DNA of 64,000 bases from Candidatus Blackallbacteria bacterium (GTDB lineage Bacteria > Cyanobacteriota > Sericytochromatia > UBA7694), in contig JBPXJQ010000049.1 in the NCBI GenBank assembly GCA_051715345.1, forward strand, positions 20,015 to 84,014. Reading direction: 5' to 3'. The notes under the pieces were generated by a model. That model was not told the DNA's origin. It saw only the letters and a list, made by a program, of their open reading frames with translations, and searched no databases. Below are positions 5,203 through 23,560 of the stretch, piece after piece (position 1 is the stretch's first letter; each line of letters begins with the position of its first letter). Position numbers and translations under genes: made by a program.

Positions 5203-5224
5203 ATCTAACTCTCCACGCTCTCTT

Positions 5225-5256
5225 GATGTTCTCTGTCGCTGATGTTCTCTATCGCT
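5225..5256. repeat. Tandem 16-bp direct repeat (gatgttctctgtcgct / gatgttctctatcgct) in the hypA-ppsA intergenic spacer
   Basis: Two adjacent 16-mers differ at one position. They lie between the hypA-like stop (5257) and the ppsA RBS. Confidence 0.8.
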
Positions 5257-5526: not shown

Positions 5527-6013
5527 GGGATATTTCTCCTGTTTGATGTGTTTGAAAATAGGCGGGGTAGCGGTTGTGGATTCGCAACATTAATTCTGGC
5601 AGGGCAGCAGTGACAATCGGGGAAAGCCCCGTGCCTGAGCCAAAGTCGGCCCCTTCGATGCCAAACAGTGTCAGGGCTTGGGGCAATTCGCCCAAGGCCT
5701 TTGCCATTTCAATCGCTTCGGCCACACTGAAGGCATGGGTGGAATAGTGAAAAAAACGTGAGGGAATGACCTGTTCTGAGGCCTCCAGCTCAAAGACCGT
5801 GCCAGGCAGCGCGCCAGAACAGACCGCATCGACCAGCACAACCTGCTCATACCCTTGCCAAGCCGCCATCAAGGAACTGCCTTCACCGCTTTGAACCTGC
5901 AGCTCGACTCCCTGCAAGTCTGACCTTTGAAGCTGTTTGAGTAGAGCTGGGCCGAGGCCATCGTCTTTGCGAAAGCCATTGCCAATGCCGAGGATCAAAA
6001 GCGGTTTTAACAT
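5519..6013 (-). CDS. Hydrogenase maturation endopeptidase (HoxW/HyaD/HycI family)
   Basis: 164 aa with ILGIGNGFRKDDGLG, the GxGN...DDG signature of [NiFe]-hydrogenase large-subunit C-terminal proteases. Confidence 0.85.
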   Translation of the reverse strand: MLKPLLILGIGNGFRKDDGLGPALLKQLQRSDLQGVELQVQSGEGSSLMAAWQGYEQVVLVDAVCSGALPGTVFELEASEQVIPSRFFHYSTHAFSVAEAIEMAKALGELPQALTLFGIEGADFGSGTGLSPIVTAALPELMLRIHNRYPAYFQTHQTGEISHA

Positions 6014-7434: not shown

Positions 7435-7721
7435 GGTGGTGGTCCCGCAGAATCGTTTTTTTTCTCAAACATTTTTAACATGCGGTCGGTGACCACATAG
7501 CCCCCAACCACGTTAACCGTGGCAAAGATCACCGCAGCTGTGCCCAAGAGGGTCCCCCAGAGGGAATGCCCCGAACCGGCTGCCAAGAGCGCCCCCACCA
7601 CCGTGATCCCTGAAATGGCGTTGGAGCCCGACATCAGGGGGGTGTGTAATTGTGAAGGCACACGGGCAATGAGTTCAAAGCCCAAAAAAGCGGAGAGAAT
7701 GAGGATCAACAGCAGTTCCAT
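7431..7721 (-). CDS. pntAB: NAD(P) transhydrogenase subunit alpha part 2 (membrane dII portion)
   Basis: The internal Met start gives MELLLILILSAFLGFELIARVPSQLHTPLMSGSNAISGITVVGAL..., about 97 aa. This is typical of a split alpha subunit. Its ATG overlaps the pntAA stop at 7721; the table ORF is over-extended to 7829. Confidence 0.8.
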   Translation of the reverse strand: MELLLILILSAFLGFELIARVPSQLHTPLMSGSNAISGITVVGALLAAGSGHSLWGTLLGTAAVIFATVNVVGGYVVTDRMLKMFEKKNDSAGPPP

Positions 7722-8878
7722 CAGCCCAGCCTTCCTTGCCAATAATCTTTGAGTTTGGCCTGTTGCCATTCGCCTTGAGACGTCAGCAAAGCGGCCATGT
7801 ATATTTCGTTTTGGGCATCCAAAACCCATGTTTTTGTTTCTGCTTGCGCTTGGCTATCCGCCAATTCTTTGAGCAAAAAAGACAGATTGGCGGAATACAT
7901 CCGACTGGCATCGTGGGGCACCCGGCCAGCCAAATTGCGGTAGCCGATCAATTTCACGCCTTTGCGTTCGATCAGCTGATCGGCAACGATCCCTTCCACA
8001 TTGCCGCCACTGTCCACGGCCCCATCGACCACAACCGAACCCGGTTTGAGCAGATCCAGCAGTTCTTCTGTGAGGATCAGCGGCGCGCGTTTGCCAAAGA
8101 CCTGCGCGCTGGTGATCACCACATCGCTGTGGGAGACAGCCTCTGCCAAACCTGAGGCCTGTCTTTTGAGTTGTTCTGTACTGACTTCTGTGACATACCC
8201 TTCTGAATTGGTCTCGGTGGGCGAGAGGGCAATTTGAATGGCCCGCGCCCCCAGGGACATAATTTGCTCTGAGGCTTCCGGGCGCAGATCATAGCCCTCG
8301 ACCCGCGCCCCCAGTCGCCGGGCTGTGGCGATGGCCTGCAGGCCCGCAACTCCTGCGCCAATCACCAAGACCCGCGCTGGTTGCAGGGTTCCGGCTGGGG
8401 TGCTCATCATCGGAAAGACCCTGGGCAAATATTCTGCTGCCAACAAAACCGCCACATAGCCAGCCAGACTGGCTTGAGAGGTTAGGGCATCCATGGCTTG
8501 GGCCCGGCTGATGCGGGGAATCCACTCCATGCTCAGGGCCCTGATTTTTTTGTCGAGGCAGACCTGCAAAAGGGCCTGATTCTGAAATGGATTCAGATAG
8601 CTAATATGCAGGGCCTGGGGGGAGACCCAAGCCATTTCTTCGGGTGGGGGTGGATTGAGGCGCAAAATAAGATCCGATTCTGCCAAGATCTGCCGCCGGT
8701 CATTTAACACAGTGGCGCCCATCTCCAGATAGTCTGTGTCGGGAATCTTCAGGCTTGTTGCCAGATCCGCTTCGATCTGCACCGCTAAGCCCAGGGCCCT
8801 GAGTTTTTTGACCTCAGCGGGCAAAAGCGGCACACGGGCCTCTTCGCTCTGACTTTCGCGGGGGACCCCGACGATCAT
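7721..8878 (-). CDS. pntAA: NAD(P) transhydrogenase subunit alpha part 1 (dI, alanine-dehydrogenase-like NAD(H)-binding)
   Basis: 385 aa with a Rossmann VLVIGAGVAGLQAIATARRLGARV. The MIVGVPRES start is typical of PntA. Its ATG (8876-8878) overlaps the hydrogenase large-subunit stop (8875-8877) as ATGA. Confidence 0.9.
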   Translation of the reverse strand: MIVGVPRESQSEEARVPLLPAEVKKLRALGLAVQIEADLATSLKIPDTDYLEMGATVLNDRRQILAESDLILRLNPPPPEEMAWVSPQALHISYLNPFQNQALLQVCLDKKIRALSMEWIPRISRAQAMDALTSQASLAGYVAVLLAAEYLPRVFPMMSTPAGTLQPARVLVIGAGVAGLQAIATARRLGARVEGYDLRPEASEQIMSLGARAIQIALSPTETNSEGYVTEVSTEQLKRQASGLAEAVSHSDVVITSAQVFGKRAPLILTEELLDLLKPGSVVVDGAVDSGGNVEGIVADQLIERKGVKLIGYRNLAGRVPHDASRMYSANLSFLLKELADSQAQAETKTWVLDAQNEIYMAALLTSQGEWQQAKLKDYWQGRLG

Positions 8879-10173
8879 GAGCGCGCCACCTCCAGTTTGA
8901 GGAAATGGGTCGAGCAGGAGATACAGGGGTCGTAATTGCGAATGGCCTGTTCGCAGAGATGTTGCAATTCGGGGTCGGCTTTGTCTAAATAGGTGTGCAA
9001 TAAATGCCGCAAATCTGCTTCGATGGTCTTTTGGTTCTGTGAGGTCGGCGGCACAATTTTGGCGTTAAGAATCAGCCCGTTGGCATCGATCTCGTAGCGG
9101 TGATAACAGATTCCCCTGGGGGCTTCGGTACAGCCATGGCCTTTTCCCGCTTTGACGGGCCAAGACACAAACGCCGCTTCGGGCTTTTGGTAAAGTTCAA
9201 TCAGGCGCAGGGCTTCTTCAAGTGCGTAGAGGGTTTCCAGGCTGCGCACCAAAATGCTTTTAAACGGGTTGTGGCAATGTTCAGCAATCCCCACTTCTTC
9301 TGCCAGGGCTTTGACATTGGGGCTGAGTTGCTCAAAATTGAGGTTGTACCGTGCCATGGGCCCGACAAAATAGGCCCCGTGGCCGGTGTGAATAGAATGC
9401 AATGCAGTTGAGCGGGCCACGTGTTCTTCTTCAAAATGCGCTTCGTATTCAGCAATGGGAATATCCAGGCCCAAATTGGAGACCAAGCGGCCTTCGTGAA
9501 TGGCGTATTCGCTCGGGTGTTTGAGGGCCACGTATTCATATTCCCGCTCAAAGGCTGGGAATTCAAATCCTGCCACCCAGCGCAGGGTGTCTATTGCGGC
9601 TTCTCGCGCCCATTCCAGTTCGGGTTTCAGCGCAAGCAATTCTGTTTTTTCGGGCAGGCGGTAAAAGCCCCCCACCTGTAAATTGATCGGGTGGATTTCC
9701 CGGCCGCCCAAAAGGGTCATCAGGGTATTGCCGATTTTTTTTAAGCGCAAACCGCGTTTGACAGCTTCTGGCGCGACTTTGGCCAGGGCCACTGCGTCTG
9801 GAAAACCGAGAAAATCTGGGGCATGTAACATGTAAATATGCAAAACATGGCTTTCGATCCACTCGCCGCAGTAGATCAGCCTGCGCAAACTGCGCAAAGG
9901 TTCGGGGACTTCAAGTCCGAGAATCGCTTCCATGGCCTGCACGGCCCCCATTTGGTAGGCAATTGGGCAAATGCCGCAGATCCGCGAAGTGATGTCTGGC
10001 GCTTCGCGGTAATCGCGCCCCCGCAAAAAGGCCTCAAAGAAGCGGGGCGGCTCAAAAATTTTCAGTTGGACTTCTTCCAATTCGCTGCCGTTCATTTGGA
10101 TATACAGCGCCCCTTCCCCCTCGACACGGGCCAGGTAATCGACTGAAATGATCCGGCGTTTTTTCTCACTCAT
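8875..10173 (-). CDS. Group 3b [NiFe]-hydrogenase large (alpha) subunit
   Basis: It has the N-terminal RICGICP Ni-binding motif and the C-terminal DPCISCSTH motif followed by a cleavable tail. The start is placed at the Met ([10 protein letters not shown]) 2 bp after the small-subunit stop; the table ORF extends to 10248. Confidence 0.9.
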
Positions 10174-10930
10174 GCTGCAGGCTCTCCTCTCGAAAGGCGG
10201 GGGCATTGCTATTAAAGCCCCGGTATAATCGGACCAATTCGGCTTCACTGACCCCCAATGATTTAAACGCTTGGCTCAATGCCGCCGGATGGGGGGAATC
10301 CGAGGGGCCAAAACAGCCGTAGCAGCCCCGTTGGAATGCCGGGCAAATCGCGCCACAGCCCGCGTGGGTCACTGGGCCCAAACAGGGGATTCCCTGTGAG
10401 ACCATCACACAGACCGTGCCCCTGAGTTTACATTCATGACAGACACTTTCGCTGGGCAAATGGGGCTTGCGCCGGTTTAACAGGGCGTTGATCAGCTCCA
10501 GCAATTGGTTTTTATTGATCGGGCAGCCCCGCAATTCAAAATCGACTTTGATATGCTCGGAGATCGCCGTGGATTGGCTGAGGGTTTGAATGTATTCGGG
10601 CCGGGCGTAGACCATGCGCATAAAATCTTCGACAGCCTGAAAATTGCGCAGGGCCTGAATCCCCCCAGCGGTGGCACAGGCCCCAATGCTGATCACCAAA
10701 GCCGATTGGGCCCGAATGGCTTGGATCCGCTCCAAATCGTGGGGGGTGGTGATTGAGCCCTCGACCAGAGAAATGTCATAGGGGCCCGCCACCACCGCCC
10801 GGCTGGCCTCTGGAAAATGGGCAATTTCAAGGGCATCTGCCACCATCAGCAATTCGTCTTCACAGTCCAATAAACTGAGCTGGCAGCCATCACAGGAGGC
10901 AAATTTCCAAACAGCCAATTTGGGTTTCAT
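10166..10930 (-). CDS. Group 3b [NiFe]-hydrogenase small (delta) subunit
   Basis: 254 aa with the [16 protein letters not shown] Fe-S motif of group 3 small subunits and additional Cys clusters C-terminally. Confidence 0.88.
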
Positions 10931-11770
10931 TTAGACCTCCCGGGTATTCAAAAGGGATTGGACCTTGTCATAGCGAAAGACGGGGCCGTCTTTGCAAATA
11001 AAGTGGGGACCGAATTGGCAGTGGCCACACAGCCCCACGGCACATTGCATATTGCGCTCCAAAGAGACATAGATCTGTTCGGGCTTGAGGCCCTTTTCCA
11101 AGAAGGTGTGAGCACTGTAGCGCATCATGATTTCGGGGCCACAGATCATCGCCAAGGTCTGATCGGGATCCAGGTTTTGCGCTTGGATCAGCGAAGTTAC
11201 CACCCCTACCCTGCCCTGCCAACTCTGTGTGGCTTGATCGAGGGTGATATGCACGGCGATCTCTGCGCCTGTTTGCCAGGACAGCAGTTCGTCGGCATAG
11301 AGGATTTCGGCATGTTGTCGGGCACCATAGAGCAAGGTCAGCGAACGGATTTCTGAGCGCATCGCCAGGGCCGCATAAATGGCAGGTCGAACAGGAGCCA
11401 AACCCAACCCTCCGGCCACAATCACCAGATCTTTGCCTTTGGCTTTGTGTAAGGGCCAGACGGAGCCAAAGGGCCCGCGCAGCCCCAGTGATTGCCCTGG
11501 TTTGAGTTCTGCCAAGGCGTTGGTTACAGCCCCCACTTTGCGAATGGTGTGGATTTGCGCCGAGGTGTTTTCGGGCGAGCCCGAGATTGAAATGGGCACT
11601 TCTCCCACCCCAAAGACATAGAGCATATTAAACTGCCCTGGCCGAAACGGGGGGATCGTCTGGACACGCGTTTGTACTTCGGGCTTTTCACAGCTCAGGC
11701 TAAAGGTCTGGGGGGTTTCCCAGCGAAAATCGCTGATACGCCAGACCTCTGGCAAAAGCGCTTGGCTCAT
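10931..11770 (-). CDS. Sulfhydrogenase gamma-like subunit (FAD/NAD(P)-binding, [2Fe-2S]; PyrK/AsrB-like)
   Basis: 279 aa with a ferredoxin-NADP-reductase-like fold and a C-terminal [15 protein letters not shown] cluster. Its ATG overlaps the upstream gene's stop as ATGA. Confidence 0.85.
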
Positions 11771-12228
11771 GTTTGACCTCCATACAGATCCAATAATTGC
11801 AAGCGCGTGGCCTGCAGTCGTTCTACCATCATTTGCCCAAAGCGCTTCTGAATCAGATACCCCATTTCATGGTCAGTTTCACATTGCTCCAAAAAGGCTT
11901 TGGCATCAAAGACCAGAATTTGGCTGTCTTCAAGCGCCTGGGCATCAAAATGCCATTTATACGGGGGATAGAGCCAAGACCAGCCCAGCAGATCCCCTTC
12001 ATGCAGGGTTTGGATCCGCACGCAGCCCCGCTGCGAGGAGAACATTTCAATCGCCACCGTACCCGATTGAATCAGGTAAAACGCTTCCGCTTTGCCGCCC
12101 AATTTAAACACAAAGTCGTTGGCCGCAAAGCTCCGCAGGTGTGCGCAGCGAATCAGGGCCTGCAGGTAGGGGGTGGGCAAATCTTTAAAATGGCGTTGTT
12201 TGCGGATCGCGTCCTCTTTAATTTCCAT
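11767..12228 (-). CDS. Cyclic-nucleotide-binding-domain-only protein (Crp/Fnr effector-domain-like, no HTH)
   Basis: 153 aa with a beta-roll [22 protein letters not shown]...[12 protein letters not shown]. The phosphate-binding cassette is degenerate, with no RTA/RSA. The gene is embedded between the beta and gamma hydrogenase genes, with an ATGA overlap downstream and a 5-bp gap upstream. Confidence 0.7.
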
Positions 12229-13533: not shown

Positions 13534-14586
13534 ATGAAACCCCAGACACGAAATTATGCCGGTGTACACAGCAATAATGCGCAATTTGCGGGATTTTCTT
13601 GGGCATTTACCCGAAATATTCGCGCAGAGCTTGTTATTTTTACTGGGCTGACGGGATATCTTGAAACCCTGACAGATCCGTCTTATCAGGGGCAAATTGT
13701 GGTGTTTACCTCTCCCCAAGTGGGCAATTATCTGCCTGATTTGACCCGGATGCAATCCCCCCGGATTCAAGTGGCGGGTGTGGTGGCCAGGGCCTATAGC
13801 CCGCCCCCAGAGAGCCCAAACCAAATCACTTTGGCCCAGCTTTTGCTCACTGCAAAGATCCCCGCCCTGATGGGGGTCGACACCCGCAGTTTGACTTTGG
13901 CGCTGCGCCAAGACTCCCAAACAAGACGCGAAGTTGAGCTGATAACGGTGCCGGGAGCGCCGATTGAAAATCCCGCCTTGCCCCATCCCGCTCAGGTCGC
14001 AATTCAGGCCCCGTATTTGCACAGAGGTGGCGAAAAAACGGTGGTGCTGGTGGATTGTGGCGTCAAAAACCGGCTTTTAGACCTGCTGCTGCAGGCGGGT
14101 TTAAGTGTGTGGCAGGTTCCCTGGGACTTTGATTGGCGGGATTTGCCCCATCAGGGCCTGTTGCTATCTAATGGCCCAGGCAATCCCGCTGAGTGTGAAA
14201 CCACAATTTCGATTTTAAAATCCGGGCTCAATCCGCAGATCCCTGTTTTGGGCATTTGTCTCGGGGCACAATTGCTCGCCCATGCGGTGGGTGCAAGCAC
14301 CGCCCCCCTGCCATTTGGTCACCGGGGGGCCAATCATCCCTGCCGCGATCGTTTGAGTGGGGCCTGTTATATCACCGCGATGAATCATGGCTATGCCATT
14401 GTTTCGGAGAGTTTGCCCCCGGAATGGCAGGTCTGGTTTGAACATCTCCACGATGGCAGTTGTGCAGGATTAAAACACCGTGTTTTTCCTTGGCGGGGGG
14501 TGCAATTTCATCCGGAGGGCTGCCCAGGCCCCACAGACACGGCATTTATCCTTGCGGATTTTCTGAGCGAGGTTCTCGATGCCTGA
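13534..14586 (+). CDS. carA: Carbamoyl-phosphate synthase small (glutaminase) subunit
   Basis: 350 aa with N-terminal GYLETLTDPSYQGQIVVFTSPQVGNY, the GICLGAQLL catalytic Cys region and the C-terminal FHPEGCPGP. Confidence 0.85.
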   Translation: MKPQTRNYAGVHSNNAQFAGFSWAFTRNIRAELVIFTGLTGYLETLTDPSYQGQIVVFTSPQVGNYLPDLTRMQSPRIQVAGVVARAYSPPPESPNQITLAQLLLTAKIPALMGVDTRSLTLALRQDSQTRREVELITVPGAPIENPALPHPAQVAIQAPYLHRGGEKTVVLVDCGVKNRLLDLLLQAGLSVWQVPWDFDWRDLPHQGLLLSNGPGNPAECETTISILKSGLNPQIPVLGICLGAQLLAHAVGASTAPLPFGHRGANHPCRDRLSGACYITAMNHGYAIVSESLPPEWQVWFEHLHDGSCAGLKHRVFPWRGVQFHPEGCPGPTDTAFILADFLSEVLDA

Positions 14587-17275
14587 ATCCGTTTTGGTGC
14601 TGGGATCGGGTCCGATTCAAATTGGCCAAGCAGGGGAGTTTGACTATGCCGGGGCCCAGGCCCTCAAAGCGCTCAAAGAAAGGGGGTTCCGCACCCTTTT
14701 GTTAAATTCGAATCTGGCCAGTGCCCAGACGCTGGGGGTTTTTGCCGATCGCGTGTTTGCCCTGCCACTCACACCCGCCTCGGTACAAGCTATTTTGGCA
14801 AGTGAAACCCCGATCGGGGTTTTGGCGGGATTTGGCGGCCAATCGGCCCTCAATTTGGCCTTGGAACTCGATCAAGCGGGGCTGTTAAAGCGCTTGCCCC
14901 TGCTCGGCACCGCTCTGGAGACCCTGATGATCTGTGAAGATCGCTTGAAGTTTTTCAGATTTTGTCAGAATCTGGGTTTGCCGGTCCCCAAGACCTATGT
15001 TTTGTCGGATCTCTCGGCCTTTAATTCTGAATTAAACGCAACAGACGCCTTTCCCTTGCTGCAGCGCAAAAGTTTTGCCTTGGGGGGCCAAGGCGCGGTC
15101 TTTTATCCCAACTTGGCGGCATTGTGGGCAGATCCCGGCCTCAAAGATCGTTTGAACCCAGCGGCACTTTTAAACGCGCCACTTTTGCTCGAAGAAGATC
15201 TCAGGGGCTGGCAAGAAATCGAGTTTGAAGTTTTGGCGGATGCTGCGGGCAATCAATTGGTGGTCTGTGCCACTGAAAACATAGACCCAATGGGCATTCA
15301 CACGGGGGACAGCTATGTGGTCACGCCGCCGATGACTTTGAGTGACGCCAGCTATTTTGGGCTGCGGGCGGCTGCCCTGAAATTGGTCTCCGCCCTGAAA
15401 TTGGTCGGGGAATGCAATGTGCAATTTGCTTACCATCCCAAAAGTGACGCCTTTCGCCTGATCGAATTGAACCCCCGTTTGAGCCGCAGTTCTGCGTTGG
15501 CCTCCAAAGCCACGGGTTATCCGATTGCCTATGTGGCCGCCCAATTGGCCTTGGGTGGGCTTTTGCCTGACATTGTCAATCCACTAACGGGGGTCACCTC
15601 CTGTTTTTTTGAACCGGCGCTGGACTATGTTGTGGTCAAAGCCCCCCGTTGGCAATTTGACAAATTTCCAGGGGCCGATCGGCATTTGGGGCCCGAGATG
15701 AAATCCATCGGTGAAAACATGGGGATCGGAGAAGATTTTGCTTCTGCTTTTGCCAAAGCATGGGCCCTGACCCAAACTCAGAAACTGCCTCATGGGGCAA
15801 ATGGGTCAAATTGGTCAATGACTGCCTTGCGGCAAGAATTGGCCTGTCCCACAGATCTGCGCATGTCGGCCCTCTTTGCGGCGCTGGAACAGGGCCTGCC
15901 TTTGGCCGAAATAGAGGCCTTAACAGGGTTTTCTGGCTGGTTTTTGCAGGCCTTTCGAGATTTGGCACCCAGGCTCAAAACGGGCCATCTCGGTTTCTGG
16001 GGCTTTCGCCAAATCGACACCCTGGCAGGGGAATTTCAGGCCCAGACGGCCTATCTCTATCGCGGCCAAGCCCTTGAATTCACCTTCGGGCCAGGTCCCT
16101 GGGTCTTGATTCTGGGCAGTGGGCCCTATGGGATTGGTTGCTCCGTCGAATTTGACTATTGCTGCGTCAGCGCGATTTATGCCCTGCAAGCAGCGGGTTA
16201 TAAAGTAGCCATGATGAATTCAAACCCCGAAACCCTGAGCACAGATTGTGATTTGGCGGATGCCCTGATCTTTGAACCTCTGTTGCCTGAAAGCCTCAAT
16301 GCAGTGATGGCGGCGCTTCGACCTGTGGGTGTCTTGGCTTCGCTGGGCGGGCAAACACCCCAGAATTTATTGCAGGTCTTGCCCCGGCACTGGCCCTTTT
16401 GGGGCACGCCAGTGGGCCAAATTTTAAAAGCTGAAAATCGCCTGGCATTTGCCCTGGCCCTGGATCAATTGCAGATCCCCCAGGCCCCTTGGGCCAAAGT
16501 GACATCCTTGGCTGACGCTTTGGCGTTTGGTCAAAAGGTCGGTTATCCGCTGATCTACCGCCCTGGTTTTGTCTTGGGGGGGGGCGGTATGCAGGTGATT
16601 GAAAACGCCCAAGCCTTAGAAAAATGGGGAGACCATCTTCAGCTCAACGGCCCTTTACCGCGCACAGAAGGGGCCTTGCTGAACCGCTTTTTGGCGGAGG
16701 CCAAAGAGTTTGAACTCGATGGCATCGCCCGTTTGGGGCAATTGGAGTATTACCTCTTTTCAGAAAATCTTGAACCCTCAGGCATTCATTCCGGGGATTC
16801 TCACCATGTCTTCCCGGCCCAAAGCCTGTCCCCTGAGGTGCGCGCCCAGGCTTTGACTTATGCCTTAAAATTGGCACAATCGTTTGAACTCCACGGTTTG
16901 TTTAATCTCCAGTTTTTTTACCATCAAGGCGCGGTTTTGCTGATCGAAGCCAATCTGCGCGCTTCCCGCAATCTGCCTTTTTTGAGCCATGTTTCGGGCC
17001 AGAACCTGGTCAGTTTGGCGATTGAGCGCCTGCTTGCGAGCGCCCCCTTGGCAGAAGCCCCTGTCGAAATCAGTGCAGATCAGGTCGGGATCCGGGTGCC
17101 AACGTTTTCTTGGGAGCGCATGGTCGGGGCCAAACGGGAATTGGGGGTGGAAATGAAGGCCACTGGCGAGTTTTGTCTGCTGGCGGACAGCTTTGATAAC
17201 GTGCTTCAGCTGTGTTATAATTTGCCAGATTTTTGTGCCTTCACACCGTCTTGGCGCCTCTCCAAAGGAGAATGA
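14579..17275 (+). CDS. carB: Carbamoyl-phosphate synthase large subunit, short form lacking the C-terminal allosteric (MGS-like) domain
   Basis: 898 aa. It has two ATP-grasp halves (GSGPIQIGQAGEFDYAG; LILGSGPYGIGCSVEFDY). The protein ends directly after the second-half PxFSWERMVGAKRELGVEMKATGEF segment. Canonical CarB is about 1070 aa. Confidence 0.88.
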   Translation: MPESVLVLGSGPIQIGQAGEFDYAGAQALKALKERGFRTLLLNSNLASAQTLGVFADRVFALPLTPASVQAILASETPIGVLAGFGGQSALNLALELDQAGLLKRLPLLGTALETLMICEDRLKFFRFCQNLGLPVPKTYVLSDLSAFNSELNATDAFPLLQRKSFALGGQGAVFYPNLAALWADPGLKDRLNPAALLNAPLLLEEDLRGWQEIEFEVLADAAGNQLVVCATENIDPMGIHTGDSYVVTPPMTLSDASYFGLRAAALKLVSALKLVGECNVQFAYHPKSDAFRLIELNPRLSRSSALASKATGYPIAYVAAQLALGGLLPDIVNPLTGVTSCFFEPALDYVVVKAPRWQFDKFPGADRHLGPEMKSIGENMGIGEDFASAFAKAWALTQTQKLPHGANGSNWSMTALRQELACPTDLRMSALFAALEQGLPLAEIEALTGFSGWFLQAFRDLAPRLKTGHLGFWGFRQIDTLAGEFQAQTAYLYRGQALEFTFGPGPWVLILGSGPYGIGCSVEFDYCCVSAIYALQAAGYKVAMMNSNPETLSTDCDLADALIFEPLLPESLNAVMAALRPVGVLASLGGQTPQNLLQVLPRHWPFWGTPVGQILKAENRLAFALALDQLQIPQAPWAKVTSLADALAFGQKVGYPLIYRPGFVLGGGGMQVIENAQALEKWGDHLQLNGPLPRTEGALLNRFLAEAKEFELDGIARLGQLEYYLFSENLEPSGIHSGDSHHVFPAQSLSPEVRAQALTYALKLAQSFELHGLFNLQFFYHQGAVLLIEANLRASRNLPFLSHVSGQNLVSLAIERLLASAPLAEAPVEISADQVGIRVPTFSWERMVGAKRELGVEMKATGEFCLLADSFDNVLQLCYNLPDFCAFTPSWRLSKGE

Positions 17276-19422
17276 GTTCAAACGTGGATTTTGAGCCCCC
17301 CCACAGCGATGATTGGATTGAATTGACCCAGTTGGAAGACCTCCTGCCGCCTGCCAGCGTGGCGGACCCCGCGTCCCCACTTTTGCCGCCGGCCCCTGAG
17401 CGCTATACCTTTATGGGCACCGTTGGCAAAGGCGCCATGGGTGAGGTTTTGCTGGCCCAAGATGTGCATCTGCGTCGCAAGGTGGCGTACAAAAAAATTC
17501 TGCCGCAGATGGCTGTCAGTCAGCAGGTGTTGAGTCGCTTTTTTGCCGAGGCGCAAATCACGGCTCAACTCGATCACCCGGCCATTATTCCGGTTTACAA
17601 CCTGGAAGTCAGTCCCGAAGGCCAAATCGCCTATTCGATGAAGCTGATTCAAGGCAAAACCCTCAAAGAGCTGATCAGCGAAGCCCGCGAGCAATACCAA
17701 GCCGGTCAAACCCCCGATCCCCAGCACAGTCTGGATACCTTGCTCAGGCATTTCCTCAAAGTCTGCGATGCCCTGTATTTTGCCCATATCAAAGGGGTGA
17801 TTCACCGCGATCTCAAGCCCGCCAATATCATGGTGGGCATGTACCACGAGGTCTATGTGATGGACTGGGGCATCGCCCGAATTATGGGGGGGGCCGAAGC
17901 CCGGATCGATGACGAGGTGGTCAGGTTGATTCATCCCGATGCCGATGCGCCCCCGCTCGAGCGCACCCAAATGGGCCAAATCATGGGCACGCCGCGTTAT
18001 CTTTCACCGGAGCAGGCCGCCGGAAAAAACGATTTGCTCGATGGCCGCAGTGATCTCTTTGCCCTGGGCCTGATCCTGTTTGAATTGGTGACGCTCAAAC
18101 CGGCGTTTACAGCCAAGACCCAAATCGAACTCCTCAAAAAAATCCTCAAAGCCGAAAAAGAGCCGCTGGAACACAGCCAAGCGGGTGTCAAAATTGCCCC
18201 AGAATTAGAGGCGATTATTCACAAAGCCACCGCCCGGCGCAAAGAGCATCGCTACGCTGATGTGGCCGAATTGGCCGAAGATCTGCGCCGCTATTTGCGG
18301 GGCGAAGCGGTGCTTGCCAGCCCAGATCGTTTTTGGCAAAAGGCCCGCCGCTATATGAGGCAACACCGGCAAGCCACGCTGCTGGGGCTGTCTCTGCTGG
18401 TTTTTCTCTCGCTCAGCGGTGCGGCTGGGTTATTGGCCTTGCGTAGCCAGGCCATGTTGGCCGCACGGGCTCACGAACAGCGTCTGGGGGGCTTTCTCGA
18501 AACCGTGGCAGAGCGCAGCCGTTTGCTCGACCGGCAGTTTTTTCTGACCGAGATGGCCCTGGAAAGTCTGTCGGCGATTGTCACTGAGGCCCTGTTTCAG
18601 GGGGAGCGCAGCGGCCAACGTCTGTATCTGGACGCGGATTATGCCCAAGCGCCGCCCCCAGATTTTGGCTTTGCGCCCCGCTATGGCAAAGCGATTAGCA
18701 CGGCCTGGCCGGTGTTTAAATTGGCCCCTGGCAGTGATTTAAACGCCCTGCGTGGGCAAATGCAGAAGCTCAATCGCCTGCATTTGGATCTGGGCCGCCT
18801 CTTTTTACGCGGGCAATTGGGCAATTTGCCTGTGCCGCCACCCGCGCAATTGCGCCAGAAGATAGTGACCGGGGAAGGCACCCTCTTGCGTTGGGTCTTT
18901 GCGGGGCTCAAAGAGGGCCTGATGTTTGCCTATCCCGGCAAAGGGGGCTATCCCGCTGATTATGATCCCAGGCAACGCCCCTGGTACAAACAAAGTGTTC
19001 AGACCCGGGGTCTGCACTGGCAAAAACCCTATTTGGATGTGCAGGGCCAAGGCCTGATGCTGACCTGCACCCGTGCACTGTATGACTATAACGAGCGCTT
19101 TTTGGGTGTCGCAGGGGCTGAAATTGCCCTCAAAGACATTCTCAAATTATTGCCCCTGCCCGATGCCCGCGCCCGCAAGGTCTATTTGCTCAATCAGGCC
19201 ATGCAGGTGGTTGCCGAACAGAGCACAGGCCAAGCTGCCAAGACCATGGGCGCGGCAGGCCTCAGTTTGGCTTTTCCCTGGCCCGAAGCCCTGCCCGCTT
19301 TGCGTTCCCGCGACAGTGGCTTTGTCCACCAGGGCCAAACGCTGTTGGTCTTTTACCGCCTGGATATTCTCGGTTGGACCTATGTGGTCGAAGCGGATCA
19401 GGCTTTGGAGCTGCAGCCATGA
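17272..19422 (+). CDS. Transmembrane Ser/Thr protein kinase with C-terminal extracytoplasmic Cache-like sensor domain
   Basis: It has a Gly loop GKGAMG, VAYKK, a catalytic loop HRDLKPANIM and DWG. There is one TM segment (LLGLSLLVFLSLSGAAGLLAL), followed by a domain with the YDPRQRPWY Cache motif. The start overlaps the carB stop; the table ORF starts at 17233. Confidence 0.85.
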   Translation: MSSNVDFEPPHSDDWIELTQLEDLLPPASVADPASPLLPPAPERYTFMGTVGKGAMGEVLLAQDVHLRRKVAYKKILPQMAVSQQVLSRFFAEAQITAQLDHPAIIPVYNLEVSPEGQIAYSMKLIQGKTLKELISEAREQYQAGQTPDPQHSLDTLLRHFLKVCDALYFAHIKGVIHRDLKPANIMVGMYHEVYVMDWGIARIMGGAEARIDDEVVRLIHPDADAPPLERTQMGQIMGTPRYLSPEQAAGKNDLLDGRSDLFALGLILFELVTLKPAFTAKTQIELLKKILKAEKEPLEHSQAGVKIAPELEAIIHKATARRKEHRYADVAELAEDLRRYLRGEAVLASPDRFWQKARRYMRQHRQATLLGLSLLVFLSLSGAAGLLALRSQAMLAARAHEQRLGGFLETVAERSRLLDRQFFLTEMALESLSAIVTEALFQGERSGQRLYLDADYAQAPPPDFGFAPRYGKAISTAWPVFKLAPGSDLNALRGQMQKLNRLHLDLGRLFLRGQLGNLPVPPPAQLRQKIVTGEGTLLRWVFAGLKEGLMFAYPGKGGYPADYDPRQRPWYKQSVQTRGLHWQKPYLDVQGQGLMLTCTRALYDYNERFLGVAGAEIALKDILKLLPLPDARARKVYLLNQAMQVVAEQSTGQAAKTMGAAGLSLAFPWPEALPALRSRDSGFVHQGQTLLVFYRLDILGWTYVVEADQALELQP

Positions 19423-21518
19423 GCCCAGAACAGATTTCTACCCCTGACGAAATGGAAGAATTGCTGCAGACGATCACGGCTGATTATAAACTCAGCTCAG
19501 AGCAACTCAGCACCCCGGGGCGTCAGTTTTACGCCCTGATCGCACATTTGGCAGAAGGTGAAATGGGCCAGATAGATTTGGTCAAAGAGAGCGCCTTGCA
19601 GCGCAAAGTGGCGATGAAAATGGTGCGCCAGCAAGAAAAACCGGCCCGCATTCGCCGTTTTTTGTTGGAGGCGCAAATCACAGCCCAATTGGACCATCCG
19701 CATATTGTGCCCGTTTACAGCCTCGAAAACACCCAAGCCGGTCTGGCATATACCATGAAACGGGTCCAGGGCCAGACCTTCCGAGAGCTGATCGATGCCG
19801 CACAATCGCAAACCCTGCCCGTGATGCCTTTGACCCAGCGTTTGGAAGTCTTTTTGGCTGTGTGTGATGCCCTGGAATATGCCCACAGCCGGGGCGTGAT
19901 TCACCGCGAATTGGAGCCCAATAACTTGATGATCGGCCATTTTCATGAGGTCTATGTGATGGATTGGGGCTTGGCCCGTGTCTTGCCCGATTCGCCTTTA
20001 GAAGTGCGCATTCCGCCAGAATTGGATCAAGATCAAGTCGACGACAGTCCACTTGAAGGCAATCTCTGCTATTTTTCGCCCGAACAGGCCAAAGGGCAAT
20101 GGGCCGAACTGGATCAGCGCAGCGATCTCTATGTGCTCGGCCTGATACTTTACGAATGGATTTGTCTGCGCCCTGCCCGCACGGGTGATTCTTACCTGGC
20201 GCTCTTGCAAATGGCTGAACAGGGCTGGATCAACCCACCCGCTTTGCCTGGCGCACAAAAACTCCCGAGTGAGCTCACTGCGATTTTGCGCAAAGCTACG
20301 GCTTTAAAGCCTGAGCAGCGCTACGCCAGTGCCAGCGCCTTGGCTGATGACCTGCGCCGCTATTTAAAGGGGGAGAGTGTCTCTGCCCAACGGGACACCC
20401 TTTTGCAGAGCACAAGCCGGCTGTTCGTCAAGCACCAGTTATTGGCCCTTGGCACGGTCTTGACATTGGTTTTGCTCTGTTCTCTGCTCGGGCTCTGGAG
20501 TCTCTGGAGCCAGCAGCGTGAATTGGCGCGTTTGCGGGCCCGCGAACAGGCCCTCAATCGCTATTTGGGTGCCGTTTATGCGCAAAGCCGTCTGATGAAC
20601 CGCCAATTTCTCAAAGCCGAAATGCAACTCGAAGCGCTGTCCGCGGTGGCGGTCTCCCATCTGACCCAGCAAAATCCGGTCAGGGATCGCTATTATTTGC
20701 ACACAAAATTTACCCCCCCCGATCAGGTGGCCTCCAAGCAATTTCACAGCCAGCTCAGTGTCAATTGGCCCCTTTCGGTCAAAACCTGGTCTTTGCCTGA
20801 ATCCCAAGTGGCAAAAGAATTGGGTGAATTGTCCAGTTTGCGCCATTTTCAAAAACGCCTCTTGATCGAGAGCAAAACCCCCGAACGGCTCAGCGCGTTG
20901 GAGAAACAAACCCTGATAGCCCAAAGCGGCACCCCCGTGAGTTATGCCACTTTGGTGCTCAAACAAGGCGCGGGGGCCTGGCTGCCGGGGGGCGATTTTG
21001 AGAGCCACAACTACGATCCGGTGATCCGGCCCTTTTACAAATTTGGGGCCTACCAACACGCCCGGCGCTGGGGCAATCCGTATATCGACGTCAGTGGGGC
21101 TGGCTTGCTTTTGATTGCCGCCACAGGTCTCTTCGATCACCAGAACCAGTTTTTGGGCACCGCCAGTCTGGATGTTAAATTTGACACGATCATTCAGACC
21201 ATGTTGGCCCTGCCACCGGCTTTGCGCACTTTAAAAGGGGGGTATTTACTCGATGACCAGGGCCGGATTGCGATTCGCTCGAATCAAAAAGGCCAAAAGT
21301 TTTCAGCCACCATTCACCCCGATTTAAAATTGCCCGACTACCCCCACCCGGCTGTGGTGAAAGCGATCAAGGCCCAACAATCGGGCCACCAGATTTTGCC
21401 CGGCAAACAGCCGCTTTTGGTGGCCTATTACCGCATTCCCGCTTTGGGTTGGTATTATCTGGTCGAAAGCGATTTGGAAAAGGCCTTGCAAGCGGCAGAT
21501 TTGAGTAAAGAAAACTAG
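19419..21518 (+). CDS. Paralogous Cache-domain transmembrane pseudokinase (degenerate catalytic loop HRELEPNN, degenerate Gly loop)
   Basis: It has the same architecture as the upstream kinase, but HRD->HRE, K->E and a Gly loop AEGEMGQ. It retains VAMK and DWG. There is a TM segment and a Cache-like C-terminus (YDPVIRPFY). Its ATG overlaps the kinase-1 stop as ATGA. Confidence 0.8.
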   Translation: MSPEQISTPDEMEELLQTITADYKLSSEQLSTPGRQFYALIAHLAEGEMGQIDLVKESALQRKVAMKMVRQQEKPARIRRFLLEAQITAQLDHPHIVPVYSLENTQAGLAYTMKRVQGQTFRELIDAAQSQTLPVMPLTQRLEVFLAVCDALEYAHSRGVIHRELEPNNLMIGHFHEVYVMDWGLARVLPDSPLEVRIPPELDQDQVDDSPLEGNLCYFSPEQAKGQWAELDQRSDLYVLGLILYEWICLRPARTGDSYLALLQMAEQGWINPPALPGAQKLPSELTAILRKATALKPEQRYASASALADDLRRYLKGESVSAQRDTLLQSTSRLFVKHQLLALGTVLTLVLLCSLLGLWSLWSQQRELARLRAREQALNRYLGAVYAQSRLMNRQFLKAEMQLEALSAVAVSHLTQQNPVRDRYYLHTKFTPPDQVASKQFHSQLSVNWPLSVKTWSLPESQVAKELGELSSLRHFQKRLLIESKTPERLSALEKQTLIAQSGTPVSYATLVLKQGAGAWLPGGDFESHNYDPVIRPFYKFGAYQHARRWGNPYIDVSGAGLLLIAATGLFDHQNQFLGTASLDVKFDTIIQTMLALPPALRTLKGGYLLDDQGRIAIRSNQKGQKFSATIHPDLKLPDYPHPAVVKAIKAQQSGHQILPGKQPLLVAYYRIPALGWYYLVESDLEKALQAADLSKEN

Positions 21519-21649: not shown

Positions 21650-23560
21650 GTGGGCAAAATTCCCCTTTCGTACCGTCTGCGCTATCATTTCGACAATACC
21701 ATGTCCAAAGGCACACCCGCCTTGATTGGCTGGCTTTTTGCGATCACTGCTTTGGTGATTTTTTTGGTGGCCTTGGGCCTGATCAATTCCCCACTGGTGC
21801 CGATCGAAGACAAAAAACCGATTGGACTGGATAAAGCACTCTGGAATGTGCTGATGCGTTCCATAGACGCTGGCACTGTGGCGGGCGATGTTGGCACCTG
21901 GCCCTATTTGCTGCTGATGTTAGGTGTCACCTTTTTTGGCATTTTTGTTGTCAGCATCTTGATTGGCCTTTTGACCAGCGGGATAGAAAACAAAATGGAC
22001 GAATTGCGCAAAGGCCGTTCGCGGGTGATTGAAAGCAATCACACCGTGATTCTGGGCTGGTCCTCTCAGGTTTTCACGATTATCTCTGAATTGATGGTGG
22101 CCAATGAAAATGTCAAGCGCCCGGCGATTGCCATTTTGGCCGAAAAAGACAAAGTCGAGATGGAAGATGAGATCCGCGACCGTTTGGGGGGAACGGGCAA
22201 TACCCGTGTGATCTGCCGCAGTGGCAATCCGATTGAAATGAGCGATTTGCAGATCGTCAATCCCCAAGATGCCCGATCGATTGTGATTCTGGCTCCCGAA
22301 GACTCCCAAGATCCCGACTCCCACGTGATCAAAACCATTTTGGCTTTAACCAACCACCCCGAGCGCAAGCCCGAACCCTACCATATTGTCGCTGAAATTC
22401 ACTCGCCACAAAATCTCGATGTGGCCAAAATGGTCGGCGGTGACGAAGTTGAATTGGTTTTGGGCGAAGATCTCATTGCGAGAATCTCTGTTCAGACCTG
22501 CCGCCAATCGGGCCTGTCGGTGGTCTATACCGAATTATTGGACTTTGACGGCGACGAAATTTACTTTCAAGCAGAACCCGGTTTGGTTGGCAAAACCTTT
22601 GCCGAAGCGATCATGTCTTACGAAGAGTCGGCCCTGATGGGGCTGCGCAAAGCCGATGGCGACATTTTGATCAATCCCCCGCTCGAAAGCCTGATCGCCA
22701 CCGGAGATAAGGTGATCGCCATTGCCCGTGACGATGATGCGGTGGTGCTTTCCAAGACCAGCGATCACCAGATCGACGAAAATGCAATTCAATTGCGCGC
22801 TCCCGAGGCCAATGTTCCTGAAAAAACCCTGATTCTGGGCTGGAATCAGCGGGGCTTTATTATCATGTCGGAGCTCGACAATTATGTCAGCCCGAACTCA
22901 GCCTTGACGATTGTGGCCGATGTAGAAGAAGCTGTCGAAATGGCGATTCGGGCCCGCAGCGAAAACATGACAAACCAAAGTCTGAGTTTTACCCAGGCAG
23001 ATACCACCGATCGCAAAGTGCTGGAAAGCCTTCAGTTGGAGAACTTTGCGCATATTATTACCCTGAGTTATTCCGACACGCTTGAAATTCAAGCTGCAGA
23101 CGCCAAAACCCTGGTGACCCTGTTGCACCTCAGAGATATCTCCGAAAAAAGCCAGGTCAGCCTTTCGATTGTCAGCGAGATGTTGGATTCACGCAACCGC
23201 GAGCTGGCCTCGGTGACCCAGGCCGACGATTTTATTGTCAGCGATAAACTGATCAGTTTGATGCTCTCTCAGCTCTCAGAAAACAAAGAGCTGGGCCGGG
23301 TTTTTGACGATCTCTTTCAATCCGAGGGCTCCGAAATCTACCTCAAACCGATCGACGAATATATCCGCCTGGATCAGCCTGTCAATTTTTATACCCTGCT
23401 CAAAGCGGCCAGTCAGCGCGGAGAGTTGGCGATTGGCTATCGCCTGCAGGCCCACGCCCAGGATCGGGAAAATGGCTTTGGCGTCAAAGTCAATCCGAAA
23501 AAATCTGAGCGGATTCAATTTGGCCCCTTGGACAAATTGATCGTCTTGGCCGAAGATTAA
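21650..23560 (+). CDS. CASTOR/POLLUX (DMI1)-like ion channel with tandem RCK/TrkA-N domains
   Basis: 636 aa with N-terminal TM helices. HTVILGWSSQVFTIISEL matches the CASTOR/POLLUX ILGWSD motif, and there are two RCK-like NAD-fold halves. The GTG start is as called; an ATG 17 codons downstream is an alternative. Confidence 0.6.
   Translation: MGKIPLSYRLRYHFDNTMSKGTPALIGWLFAITALVIFLVALGLINSPLVPIEDKKPIGLDKALWNVLMRSIDAGTVAGDVGTWPYLLLMLGVTFFGIFVVSILIGLLTSGIENKMDELRKGRSRVIESNHTVILGWSSQVFTIISELMVANENVKRPAIAILAEKDKVEMEDEIRDRLGGTGNTRVICRSGNPIEMSDLQIVNPQDARSIVILAPEDSQDPDSHVIKTILALTNHPERKPEPYHIVAEIHSPQNLDVAKMVGGDEVELVLGEDLIARISVQTCRQSGLSVVYTELLDFDGDEIYFQAEPGLVGKTFAEAIMSYEESALMGLRKADGDILINPPLESLIATGDKVIAIARDDDAVVLSKTSDHQIDENAIQLRAPEANVPEKTLILGWNQRGFIIMSELDNYVSPNSALTIVADVEEAVEMAIRARSENMTNQSLSFTQADTTDRKVLESLQLENFAHIITLSYSDTLEIQAADAKTLVTLLHLRDISEKSQVSLSIVSEMLDSRNRELASVTQADDFIVSDKLISLMLSQLSENKELGRVFDDLFQSEGSEIYLKPIDEYIRLDQPVNFYTLLKAASQRGELAIGYRLQAHAQDRENGFGVKVNPKKSERIQFGPLDKLIVLAED

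Follow-up and report, generated by a model that had tools for sequence, protein, structure and literature searches.

A receptor Ser/Thr kinase and a pseudokinase-like paralog with amino-acid-type Cache sensors, a predicted two-gene module of Sericytochromatia

Two adjacent paralogs, STK1 and STK2, are best read as an autonomous module of a receptor kinase and a pseudokinase co-receptor with Cache pockets of the amino-acid type, a reading to which we give a probability of about 0.6. They were found in a 64,000-nt stretch of DNA (the window), and all coordinates are positions within it. The two proteins share 35% identity and a common architecture. The first-pass annotation had described neighbouring paralogs of ~700 aa with an N-terminal Hanks kinase domain, one transmembrane helix and a Cache domain; Pfam searches and hydropathy analysis agreed with this, and the ORF coordinates and both ATGA overlaps were as claimed in the window. 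The genes and their parts are:

17272–19422, + strand: STK1, canonical receptor Hanks Ser/Thr kinase of 716 aa (Pfam Pkinase, PknB match)
17404–18255, + strand: STK1 kinase domain, residues 45–328 (Pfam, PknB alignment)
17425–17442, 17482–17493, 17803–17826 and within 17860–17871: STK1 motifs GKGAMG, VAYK, HRDLKPAN and DWG
17959–18015, + strand: STK1 activation loop with Thr (PknB alignment)
18379–18435, + strand: single transmembrane helix of STK1, residues 370–388 (Kyte-Doolittle 19-residue maximum 2.17)
18484–19419, + strand: extracytoplasmic dCache_1 sensor of STK1 (Pfam, phmmer to the PctA ligand-binding domain)
19419–19422, + strand: ATGA overlap of STK1 stop and STK2 start, pointing to translational coupling (ORF coordinates)
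19419–21518, + strand: STK2, catalytically degenerate paralog of 699 aa with STK1-like architecture, predicted pseudokinase
19533–20345, + strand: STK2 pseudokinase domain, residues 39–309 (PknB alignment, clade alignment)
19551–19568, 19608–19619, 19902–19925 and within 19959–19970: STK2 motifs AEGEMG, VAMK, HRELEPNN and DWG
20040–20087, + strand: acidic, Thr-less activation loop of STK2 (alignment)
20439–20495, + strand: single transmembrane helix of STK2, residues 341–359 (Kyte-Doolittle 19-residue maximum 2.51)
20511–21515, + strand: extracytoplasmic dCache_1 sensor of STK2 (AF2 model, Foldseek, phmmer to PctA)

The kinase domain of STK1 scored well above the Pfam Pkinase cutoff (E = 1e-32, 114 bits versus 31.7), and its best PDB match was PknB of M. 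tuberculosis (E = 7e-42). [quoted passage not shown] In the alignment with PknB all catalytic motifs of STK1 were intact (GKGAMG, VAYK, EAQ, HRDLKPAN, DWG, the loop Thr and SPEQ), which bore out the earlier description of the first paralog as having an intact GxGxxG, VAYK and HRDLKPAN. By these sequence criteria STK1 is a catalytically competent Hanks-type Ser/Thr kinase (PF00069). Apart from the transmembrane helix, the sole hydrophobic peak in its Kyte-Doolittle profile was the buried alphaF helix of the kinase domain.

STK2 also has a kinase fold (Pfam Pkinase, E = 4e-28, 98.9 bits), and PknB was its closest relative among solved structures (E = 2e-37). In the PknB alignment, the catalytic-base Asp was replaced by Glu164 and the catalytic-loop Lys by Glu166 (HRELEPNN), so that both the HRD Asp and the HRDxK Lys expected of a competent kinase are gone. 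The first-pass annotation had recorded the loss of the catalytic Asp and Lys. This holds for the Asp and for the Lys of the catalytic loop, but STK2 keeps the beta3 Lys (VAMK), which anchors ATP, together with the alphaC Glu, the Asn of the loop and the DWG Asp. With these ATP- and Mg-holding residues in place, STK2 is predicted to bind nucleotide. The bacterial STK atlas defines a pseudokinase operationally by the absence of at least one of the VAIK Lys, the HRD Asp and the DFG Asp; with Glu in place of the HRD Asp throughout the clade, STK2 is a predicted pseudokinase under this definition. Since Asp-to-Glu is a conservative change, residual or unusual catalysis is possible.

HRELEPxN was invariant in all eight STK2 orthologue clusters (52–100% identity), and over 220 other family members lacked it. 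The remaining 112 matches of the orthologue search all carried HRD, and the other sampled family members all kept HRD[LI]K. In a search of 1.84 billion proteins, where one representative stood for the STK2 clade (1212 bits versus 632 for the next score), the motif was missing from the best 150 representatives. The VAIK-position Lys was likewise invariant across the clade, and the DWG motif had a lone exception, NWG in orthologue P0007. A degraded Gly loop, also claimed for STK2, was present in the window protein, where the first Gly has been lost in that lineage, and in its closest relatives, but it was not a feature of the clade, since the other orthologues keep GxGxxG.

The C-terminal halves of both proteins were detected by the Pfam models dCache_1 and MCP-like_PDC_1. 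The dCache_1 scores (36.5 and 35.3) lay under the gathering score of 45, and MCP-like_PDC_1 was above its cutoff for STK1. An AF2 model of STK2 residues 365–699 (pLDDT 94.4, pTM 0.91) had Mlp24, PctA, Mlp37 and CtaA as best Foldseek matches (probability 1.0), all of them amino-acid-binding dCache domains. phmmer connected both sensors to the ligand-binding domain of PctA (STK1, E = 1e-11; STK2, E = 3e-6). The model and the profile matches thus assign the extracytoplasmic domains to dCache_1, a class defined by a long N-terminal helix and two PAS-like alpha/beta modules after it.

The RPWY and RPFY motifs noted in the first-pass annotation were located at residues 564–572 of STK1 and 532–540 of STK2, within a recognizable amino-acid-binding signature. 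In this AA_motif, Y121, R126 and W128 of PctA contact the ligand carboxyl and Y144 and D173 the amino group, and its two parts are spaced 13–17 residues (PMC8915833). Register and spacing relative to PctA were correct in both sensors: STK1 has Y564, R569, W571, Y572 and Y587, with E617 at the D173 position, and STK2 has Y532, R537, Y540, Y555 and D585, with F539 at the W128 position. The distal pockets are therefore predicted to be of the amino-acid-binding type. Whether they bind amino acids is uncertain, because each sensor deviates from the motif once (D173E in STK1, W128F in STK2) and PctA with D173N or D173A no longer binds; the text of PMC8915833 consulted does not report on D173E.

The pair occurred only in a few members of the Sericytochromatia, which are related to cyanobacteria but do not photosynthesise, and its two members have evolved together. 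STK1 orthologues were 98–58% identical, and STK1/STK2 identities fell in step (97/96, 83/82, 66/64 and 52/53%). Neighbour-joining trees built from numpy distances gave congruent topologies for the two clades. The STK1 stop overlapped the STK2 start by 4–11 nt in every locus recovered (L001–L007, L018–L020, L022 and L023), in keeping with the tight coupling proposed earlier for the second paralog. Both genes were under purifying selection (dN/dS 0.087 for STK1 and 0.112 for STK2). The kinase-domain dN of STK2 was 1.7–2.8 times that of STK1, at an omega of ~0.08–0.10 in the two unsaturated comparisons, and its ectodomain dN was lower than that of STK1 in three of four comparisons. In the wider family, only 2 of 80 loci had kinases in tandem, with HRD in both copies. 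This 80-locus background consisted of the loci returned by a metagenome scan seeded with the clade of P0009, P0010 and P0013; the scan did not recover that clade itself (best match 41%). The same clade, and not STK1, was the nearest outgroup of STK2 in the neighbour-joining tree, and an STK1 relative at 47% identity was an unpaired singleton. We rejected the idea that STK1 and STK2 had recently duplicated in tandem or undergone gene conversion: they are only 35% identical, the longest exact DNA runs that they share measured 17–29 nt and sat in the most conserved motifs, and the outgroup nearest to STK2 is that other clade.

We propose that the cell would produce STK1 and STK2 at a constant ratio and that the two would combine into a heteromeric receptor; heterodimerisation is our inference. 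STK2 would add a second, different ligand pocket, and its nucleotide-binding, phosphotransfer-dead domain would allosterically switch or scaffold STK1, for which PknB-type kinases, activated by dimerisation, and the kinase/pseudokinase co-receptors of eukaryotes offer precedents. The output would be STK1-dependent Ser/Thr phosphorylation of cytoplasmic targets. In the window, the pair would have been inserted between a short carB gene and a Castor-like channel gene, with no functional coupling to carAB. Annotation of the window ORFs revealed no kinase substrate gene, and no FHA, PP2C or other obvious partner gene was found among 45 of the 49 long ORFs. A stricter version, which we advance only tentatively, is an obligate ligand-gated heteromer in which STK2, with its differently tuned pocket, switches STK1; this HRELEP, Lys-retaining class would be uncatalogued in bacteria.

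The co-receptor reading competes with others that interpret the same residues and rates differently. STK1 and STK2 might be two parallel active sensor kinases, STK2 using Glu164 as its base and each acting on its own or on shared targets. The residues that STK2 retains from the beta3 Lys to the DWG Asp, the GxGxxG of most orthologues, the strong purifying selection on its kinase domain and the difference between the two sensor pockets all fit this idea. Against it stand two invariant active-site changes, one of which reverses the charge at the gamma-phosphate-contacting Lys, in a family whose other sampled members all have HRD[LI]K. The missing activation-loop Thr, the faster divergence of the STK2 kinase domain relative to that of STK1 and the atlas definition, under which loss of the HRD Asp makes a pseudokinase, also weigh against it, and we consider parallel kinases unlikely. 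That STK2 is a functionless, decaying duplicate could be argued from the two lost catalytic residues and, in the window lineage, the lost first Gly. Its ORF is intact in 8/8 clusters, down to 52% identity, however, and its ectodomain is mostly the better conserved of the two. Because STK2 diverges at the rate of STK1, keeps its altered motif invariant and has a dN/dS of ~0.11, we rejected this reading as effectively refuted. The second paralog is, as first suggested, pseudokinase-like, and it is not decaying.

Less probable than parallel kinases, though not as remote as decay, is a regulatory tie to the neighbouring genes, by which the pair would be co-transcribed with carAB and an extracellular signal would control carbamoyl-phosphate supply, or hydrogenase maturation or activity, through phosphorylation. 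The neighbours themselves are as first annotated: a carA-like and then a carB-like gene lie directly upstream of STK1, and a sulfhydrogenase-type NiFe hydrogenase operon is divergent from carA-carB-STK1-STK2. HypF takes carbamoyl phosphate as the precursor of the CN ligand (PMC12134894), and at 17272–17275 the stop of the carB-like gene shares an ATGA with the start of STK1. We could confirm the order of hydrogenase, carA, carB, STK1 and STK2 in no locus beyond the window and its two nearest relatives, L001 and L002. More distantly related orthologous pairs lay behind a 2OG-Fe(II) oxygenase gene in L004 and behind recG in L022, with neither carAB nor hydrogenase genes, and conversely the kinases were absent where the synteny persisted, in L024 (hydrogenase divergent from carA, short carB, Castor-like channel and LysM genes) and L026 (hypE-carA-carB-hydB). 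The linkage expected of an operon or functional unit of the pair with carAB and hydrogenase is thus not conserved, and the position of the pair looks like a local accident. In the window, the STK1 ATG at 17272 has a GGAG no more than 1 nt away, and a GTG at 17284 is an alternative start. In L002, carB ends ~70 nt before the GTG equivalent to 17284, so that of the two start/stop overlaps first reported, the one between STK1 and STK2 recurs in every locus, but the one between carB and STK1 does not.

Transcription of the pair may also be its own. Upstream of STK1, within the 3'-terminal part of the carB-like ORF, we found:

17193–17221, + strand: promoter-like site of the STK1-STK2 unit (TTGATA, 17-nt spacer, TG-n-TATAAT)
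17209–17221, + strand: extended -10 element GCTGTGYTAKAHT with conserved core GCTGTGTTATAAT, invariant in five lineages

In the window this site has 11 of 12 consensus positions as well as the extended -10 TG. When the sequences preceding STK1 in the window, L001, L002, L004 and L022 were compared, no block but the core, GCTGTG[T/C]TA[T/G]A[A/C/T]T, was invariant, and its pattern had one match in the window against 0.01 expected. The 13 nt were kept in these five lineages behind three different upstream genes. Consensus promoter scans upstream of STK1 found none in L004 and L022; there the block was found by direct reading, and it lacks a good -35. Read-through from carAB is possible, since no terminator-like site was found between carB and STK1 in the window. 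An extended -10 that is invariant whatever the upstream gene nevertheless argues for transcription of STK1-STK2 independent of carAB, and we infer from consensus and conservation that the pair has its own, putative promoter. The co-transcription with carAB claimed in the first-pass annotation is therefore disfavoured, and the kinase control of hydrogenase maturation built on it is not supported.

In overall layout, STK1 and STK2 resemble PknB, with an N-terminal cytoplasmic kinase, one transmembrane helix and an extracytoplasmic sensor. L33 of PknB lies in the back-to-back N-lobe dimer interface, and the corresponding Leu was conserved family-wide and invariant in STK2. In contrast to the PASTA sensor of PknB, both proteins have dCache_1; DFG is DWG in their whole family; HRDxKP of PknB is HRELEP in STK2; and PknB is a homodimer without a dedicated degenerate partner. 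Solved PknB-type structures of M. tuberculosis are available as PDB 1MRU and 3ORM. The sensors resemble dCache_1AA receptors, as they can be aligned with PctA through the whole YxxxxRxWY...Y...D register, with one deviation in each. A dCache_1AA Ser/Thr kinase of Enhygromyxa salina was selected for biochemical binding assays (Gumerov et al. 2022, PMC8915833). The dCache_1AA proteins known so far are receptors that stand alone, whereas STK1 and STK2 form a kinase/pseudokinase pair.

Pseudokinase families in the atlas, such as the MviN-associated ActPs3, are likewise conserved and non-decaying with a residue of the triad missing (bioRxiv 10.1101/2025.01.12.632604). In all seven of them (CP1, DYD, ActPs1-3, DLHK and GLW) the VAIK Lys is substituted in 34–100% of members; it is always lost in five, and several families lack the DFG Asp as well (bioRxiv 10.1101/2025.01.12.632604). 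Compared by the atlas description, the STK2 clade differs in keeping the VAIK Lys and, with one exception, the Asp at the DFG position. The atlas text makes no mention of Cache domains or of tandem kinase/pseudokinase gene pairs (bioRxiv 10.1101/2025.01.12.632604), and our literature search for a Cache kinase/pseudokinase pair found no description.

If the co-receptor reading is true, the pair would be a bacterial counterpart of kinase/pseudokinase co-receptors that integrates two extracellular ligands. In EGFR-HER3, an active receptor kinase is joined by a paralogous receptor with a substituted catalytic base that keeps its nucleotide-binding residues, each with its own ligand-binding ectodomain. 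The comparison is an analogy, homology being limited to the kinase fold, and we know of no eukaryotic counterpart to the operon coupling of the two genes. Bacterial pseudokinases have been catalogued only lately, and those described to date are mostly soluble or fused to machinery such as MviN or the T7SS component EssB/YukC. A co-inherited, translationally coupled receptor pseudokinase would offer a two-gene model for the regulation of an active kinase by a dead one, and a Cache sensor on each partner would permit the study of two-pocket ligand integration.

Kinase control of hydrogenase maturation had been a tempting inference from adjacency in one genome, which is now corrected. The carAB-hydrogenase link itself looks real, given L024 and L026. 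Canonical CarB (TIGR01369) is ~1,060 aa long, has the oligomerisation domain in full and carries an MGS-like allosteric domain at its C terminus. The carB-like protein, at 898 aa, scored 879 bits versus the TIGR01369 cutoff of 1027, matched the oligomerisation domain over only 43 residues and had no MGS-like domain (PF02142) detectable by Pfam; its nearest canonical CarB was 40–43% identical. Judged by its sequence, it is not a canonical CarB. Our literature search for hydrogenase-linked carAB found no description. The short carAB, which lacks the allosteric domain, was conserved with NiFe hydrogenase and hyp genes, and such a hydrogenase-linked short carbamoyl-phosphate synthetase bears on the source of the [NiFe] cyanide-ligand precursor.

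STK1 and STK2, adjacent paralogous membrane Hanks kinase genes, were co-inherited as a translationally coupled pair, the second encoding a predicted pseudokinase. ORF listing and translation gave the following features.

17272-19422, + strand, STK1, 716 aa
19419-21518, + strand, STK2, 699 aa
17272-17275, + strand, ATGA joining the carB-like stop and the STK1 ATG
19419-19422, + strand, ATGA joining the STK1 stop and the STK2 start

In both proteins, which are 35% identical, Pfam placed a protein kinase domain N-terminally (STK1 E = 1e-32, STK2 E = 4e-28) and dCache_1 / MCP-like PDC matches in the C-terminal half. Each contained one strongly hydrophobic 19-mer (STK1 residues 370-388, STK2 residues 341-359). 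Since this single segment lies between the two domains, the kinase domains are placed in the cytoplasm and the Cache domains, which reach the C-terminus, outside the cell. Coordinates, Pfam domains and hydrophobic segments agreed with the first-pass annotation of adjacent ~700-aa kinase-TM-Cache paralogs with ATGA overlaps.

The nearest solved structure to both kinase domains was M. tuberculosis PknB (STK1 E = 7e-42, STK2 E = 2e-37), and motif states were read residue by residue from alignments to it. STK1 had the intact catalytic motifs ascribed to it: GKGAMG, VAYK, the alphaC Glu, HRDLKPAN, DWG, a Thr at the PknB T171 position and SPEQ. STK2 had AEGEMG, VAMK, the alphaC Glu, HRELEPNN, DWG and an acidic activation loop without Thr. 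The predicted loss of catalytic residues in STK2 was thus seen for the Asp and the catalytic-loop Lys (HRDxK), but the ATP-anchoring beta3 Lys was kept. The Gly loop, also described as degraded, was so in the window but intact (GxGxxG) in four STK2 orthologues, so its degradation is a local feature.

A search of 5.8 billion proteins assigned the window to a Candidatus Sericytochromatia MAG and gave eight clusters of STK2 orthologues, 52-100% identical. The next matches (≤42%) belonged to a very large Pkinase-TM-dCache family spread over many phyla. HRELEPxN was kept in 8/8 orthologue clusters, in agreement with a pseudokinase, and the other 112 matches listed had HRD plus Lys. The beta3 Lys, alphaC Glu, loop Asn and HRELEP were invariant across the clade; DWG was changed to NWG in one orthologue. 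With a profile of the eight orthologues searched against 1.84 billion 50%-identity representatives, the clade appeared as a single representative at 1212 bits, followed by 632 bits, and HRELEP-type substitutions were absent from the rest of the top 150 representatives. When a single genome from each of 185,579 species was scanned with the clade alignment, the STK2 clade turned up in just four, each belonging to Sericytochromatia or UBA7694.

The possibility that STK2 is a decaying gene was ruled out by its divergence in step with STK1 and by low dN/dS. Over the same genome pairs, STK1/STK2 orthologue identities were 97/96, 83/82, 66/64 and 52/53%. Both genes were under purifying selection, with dN/dS (Nei-Gojobori) of 0.087 for STK1 and 0.112 for STK2 between the window and the homologous locus L001. 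Non-synonymous change in the kinase-like domain was 1.7 to 2.8 times higher in STK2 than in STK1, with an omega of ~0.08-0.10 for STK2 in two comparisons with unsaturated dS, and the ectodomain was better conserved in STK2 in three of four comparisons. Such a pattern would be expected if catalysis was relaxed while structure and sensing were kept. In a neighbour-joining tree, the STK1 and STK2 clades had congruent branching orders. The STK2 clade adjoined three database homologues (P0009, P0010, P0013) instead of STK1, so the duplication is old. These sister proteins kept HRDLKPAN, but their Gly-rich loop (SGPLGD, SSPQGE) no longer had its first Gly, or its first two.

An STK1 orthologue stood directly 5' of an STK2 orthologue in every recovered homologous locus (L001-L007, L018-L020, L022, L023), with an overlap of 4-11 nt between stop and start. 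Tandem kinase genes occurred in 2/80 metagenomic loci of the wider family, where both copies were HRD, and an STK1 relative at 47% identity was a singleton gene. Four Logan contigs (L005, L007, L018, L019; four runs, three lineages) started at the same STK1 codon, at EVYVMDWG. Positions 17848-17873 of STK1 and 19947-19972 of STK2 shared 17 identical bases, one mismatch and 8 identical bases; the common contig start is probably an assembly-graph break at this short inter-paralog repeat.

The gene neighbourhood of the pair included the following features.

13534-14586, + strand, carA-like
14579-17275, + strand, carB-like, 898 aa
21546-21573, promoter-like site of the Castor/Pollux-type channel gene
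21650-23560, + strand, Castor/Pollux-type RCK-domain channel homologue, 636 aa, directly 3' of STK2

The first-pass annotation suggested that the kinase pair controls hydrogenase maturation or activity, a proposal that the gene orders did not support. A short carB preceded the pair in the window, L001 and L002, but a 2OG-Fe(II) oxygenase gene did so in L004 and recG in L022, where a CsgG-like lipoprotein gene followed. The channel gene lay 3' of the pair in the window, L001, L002, L003 and L018. Conversely, kinase genes were absent from L024, in which the hydrogenase operon diverged from carA, an orthologue of the short carB (67% identity), a Castor-like channel and a LysM protein, and from L026 (hypE-carA-carB-hydB-cNMP). 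In its gene linkage the pair is independent of carAB and the hydrogenase. The simplest reading of these gene orders would be two separate conserved units, hydrogenase with short carAB and the kinase pair, the latter sitting between carB and the channel gene in the window's lineage.

Transcription of the pair together with carAB, also proposed, was disfavoured by a conserved promoter-like element, found by consensus scan.

17193-17221, + strand, promoter-like site: TTGATA, 17-nt spacer, TG-n-TATAAT

The site scored 11/12 consensus positions plus the extended -10 TG, and fell inside the final codons of the carB-like gene, 51 nt 5' of the STK1 ATG. The STK1 upstream regions of five loci (window, L001, L002, L004, L022) followed three different genes and were unalignable except for one invariant island, GCTGTG[T/C]TA[T/G]A[A/C/T]T, 41-77 nt 5' of the STK1 start, with one match in the 64-kb window vs 0.01 expected. 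From these sequences we infer a putative extended -10 promoter of the pair's own. No terminator-like site was found between the carB-like gene and STK1 in the window, so read-through from carAB may also occur. As for overlap coupling to carB, the ATGA was present in the window but the overlap was absent in L002, where the carB ORF ended ~70 nt before STK1 and STK1 started with GTG, equivalent to window position 17284. Because of this, and because GGAG is only 1 nt from the window ATG at 17272, the overlap is neither conserved nor certain.

An AlphaFold2 model of the STK2 ectodomain (residues 365-699, 72 aligned homologues; pLDDT 94.4, pTM 0.91) showed a long helix followed by two alpha/beta modules. 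Its top Foldseek matches in the PDB were the amino-acid-binding dCache domains of Mlp24, PctA, Mlp37, CtaA, PctB and PctC (probability 1.0, E ~1e-10). Both sensors aligned to the PctA ligand-binding domain (STK1 E = 1e-11, STK2 E = 3e-6), in register with the published AA_motif (Y121, R126, W128, Y144, D173; PMC8915833). STK1 had Y, R, W, Y, E, with Glu at the D173 position, and STK2 had Y, R, F, Y, D, with Phe at the W128 position. Family-wide, the motif combination seen most often was YRWYYDE, and YRWYYDD and YRFYYDD were also frequent, so amino-acid or amine-type ligands are plausible candidates. PctA lost binding with D173N or D173A, and no report on D173E was found in the accessible text of PMC8915833. 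The proteins tested for binding there include a dCache_1AA Ser/Thr kinase from Enhygromyxa salina, so the single kinase receptor architecture is already known.

We infer that STK1 and STK2 assemble into a heteromeric receptor. STK2 has neither the catalytic base nor the gamma-phosphate Lys, although it still looks capable of holding ATP/Mg, and its role towards STK1 would be that of an allosteric partner, a scaffold or a co-sensor. Precedents are PknB-type kinases, which are activated by dimerisation, and the kinase/pseudokinase co-receptors of eukaryotes. At the position of PknB L33, a Leu is conserved throughout the family and invariant in the STK2 clade, a weak hint of a common N-lobe interface. 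Among 45 of the 49 long ORFs of the 64 kb, no FHA or PP2C gene was found.

The seven pseudokinase families of a 2025 bacterial kinase atlas (bioRxiv 10.1101/2025.01.12.632604) all show VAIK-Lys substitution. By their descriptions, they differ from the STK2 clade, a receptor that keeps the Lys, has HRELEP and is always paired; there is no obvious place for STK2 among them. In the atlas text there is no mention of Cache domains or of tandem kinase/pseudokinase genes. The pair joins known kinds of protein, namely Hanks receptor kinases, dCache_1AA-like sensors and bacterial pseudokinases, in an apparently undescribed kinase/pseudokinase receptor pair whose reach is a few uncultured genomes. P0350, a 1,349-aa homologue from another organism, combined in one polypeptide a degenerate kinase domain (HGGLRPSN), a second, canonical one and a complete Pkinase-TM-dCache unit; in this family, then, pseudokinases and kinases are brought together by fusion in addition to gene pairing.

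The short carAB was linked to sulfhydrogenase-type NiFe hydrogenase genes in every recovered context (including L001, L002, L024 and L026), and lay between hypE and hydB in L026.

8326-12007 (L024 coordinates), short carAB
1251-4890 (L026 coordinates), short carAB

CarB was 867-898 aa long across the window, L024 and L026. In the window it lacked the MGS-like allosteric domain, had a truncated oligomerisation domain and scored below the TIGR01369 cutoff. Canonical CarB proteins matched it at just 40-43% identity, and no more than four other clusters came above this level (54-89%), two of them partial. Carbamoyl phosphate is the HypF substrate for cyanide ligands (PMC12134894), which makes a dedicated supply enzyme reasonable, and the short carAB may be a dedicated, allosterically unregulated source for HypF/HypE cyanide ligands. 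In L002, an 82%-identity relative, the short carB (5154-7793) was called as two ORFs (317 + 560 aa), which may stem from a frameshift, from misassembly or from the beginnings of gene loss.

Further genes in the window were as follows.

11767-12228, - strand, cyclic-nucleotide-binding-domain protein, 153 aa, within the hydrogenase operon
7721-8878, - strand, pntA (transhydrogenase), after the hydrogenase large subunit
6007-7434, - strand, pntB (transhydrogenase), likewise
5519-6013, - strand, HycI-type maturation protease, likewise
33522-34430, - strand, DNA photolyase, DNA_photolyase domain ORF
33114-33512, - strand, DNA photolyase, FAD_binding_7 domain ORF
30420-33038, + strand, 872-aa protein, five Big_5 Ig-like repeats and a C-terminal ice-binding-like domain

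The cyclic-nucleotide-binding gene lay between the Fer4_22 (HydB-like) and NAD-binding (HydG-like) subunit genes, a placement kept in L001, L002, L024 and L026, which may point to regulation of the hydrogenase by cNMP or to an additional subunit. The pntA/pntB/HycI-type order recurred in L024, ending with hypA, and suggests an NADP-coupled hydrogenase wired to NADH/NADPH exchange. The apparently split photolyase gene (33114-34430) may be due to a frameshift or in-frame stop, or to an error in sequencing. The Big_5 protein probably serves as an adhesin at the cell surface or binds ice.
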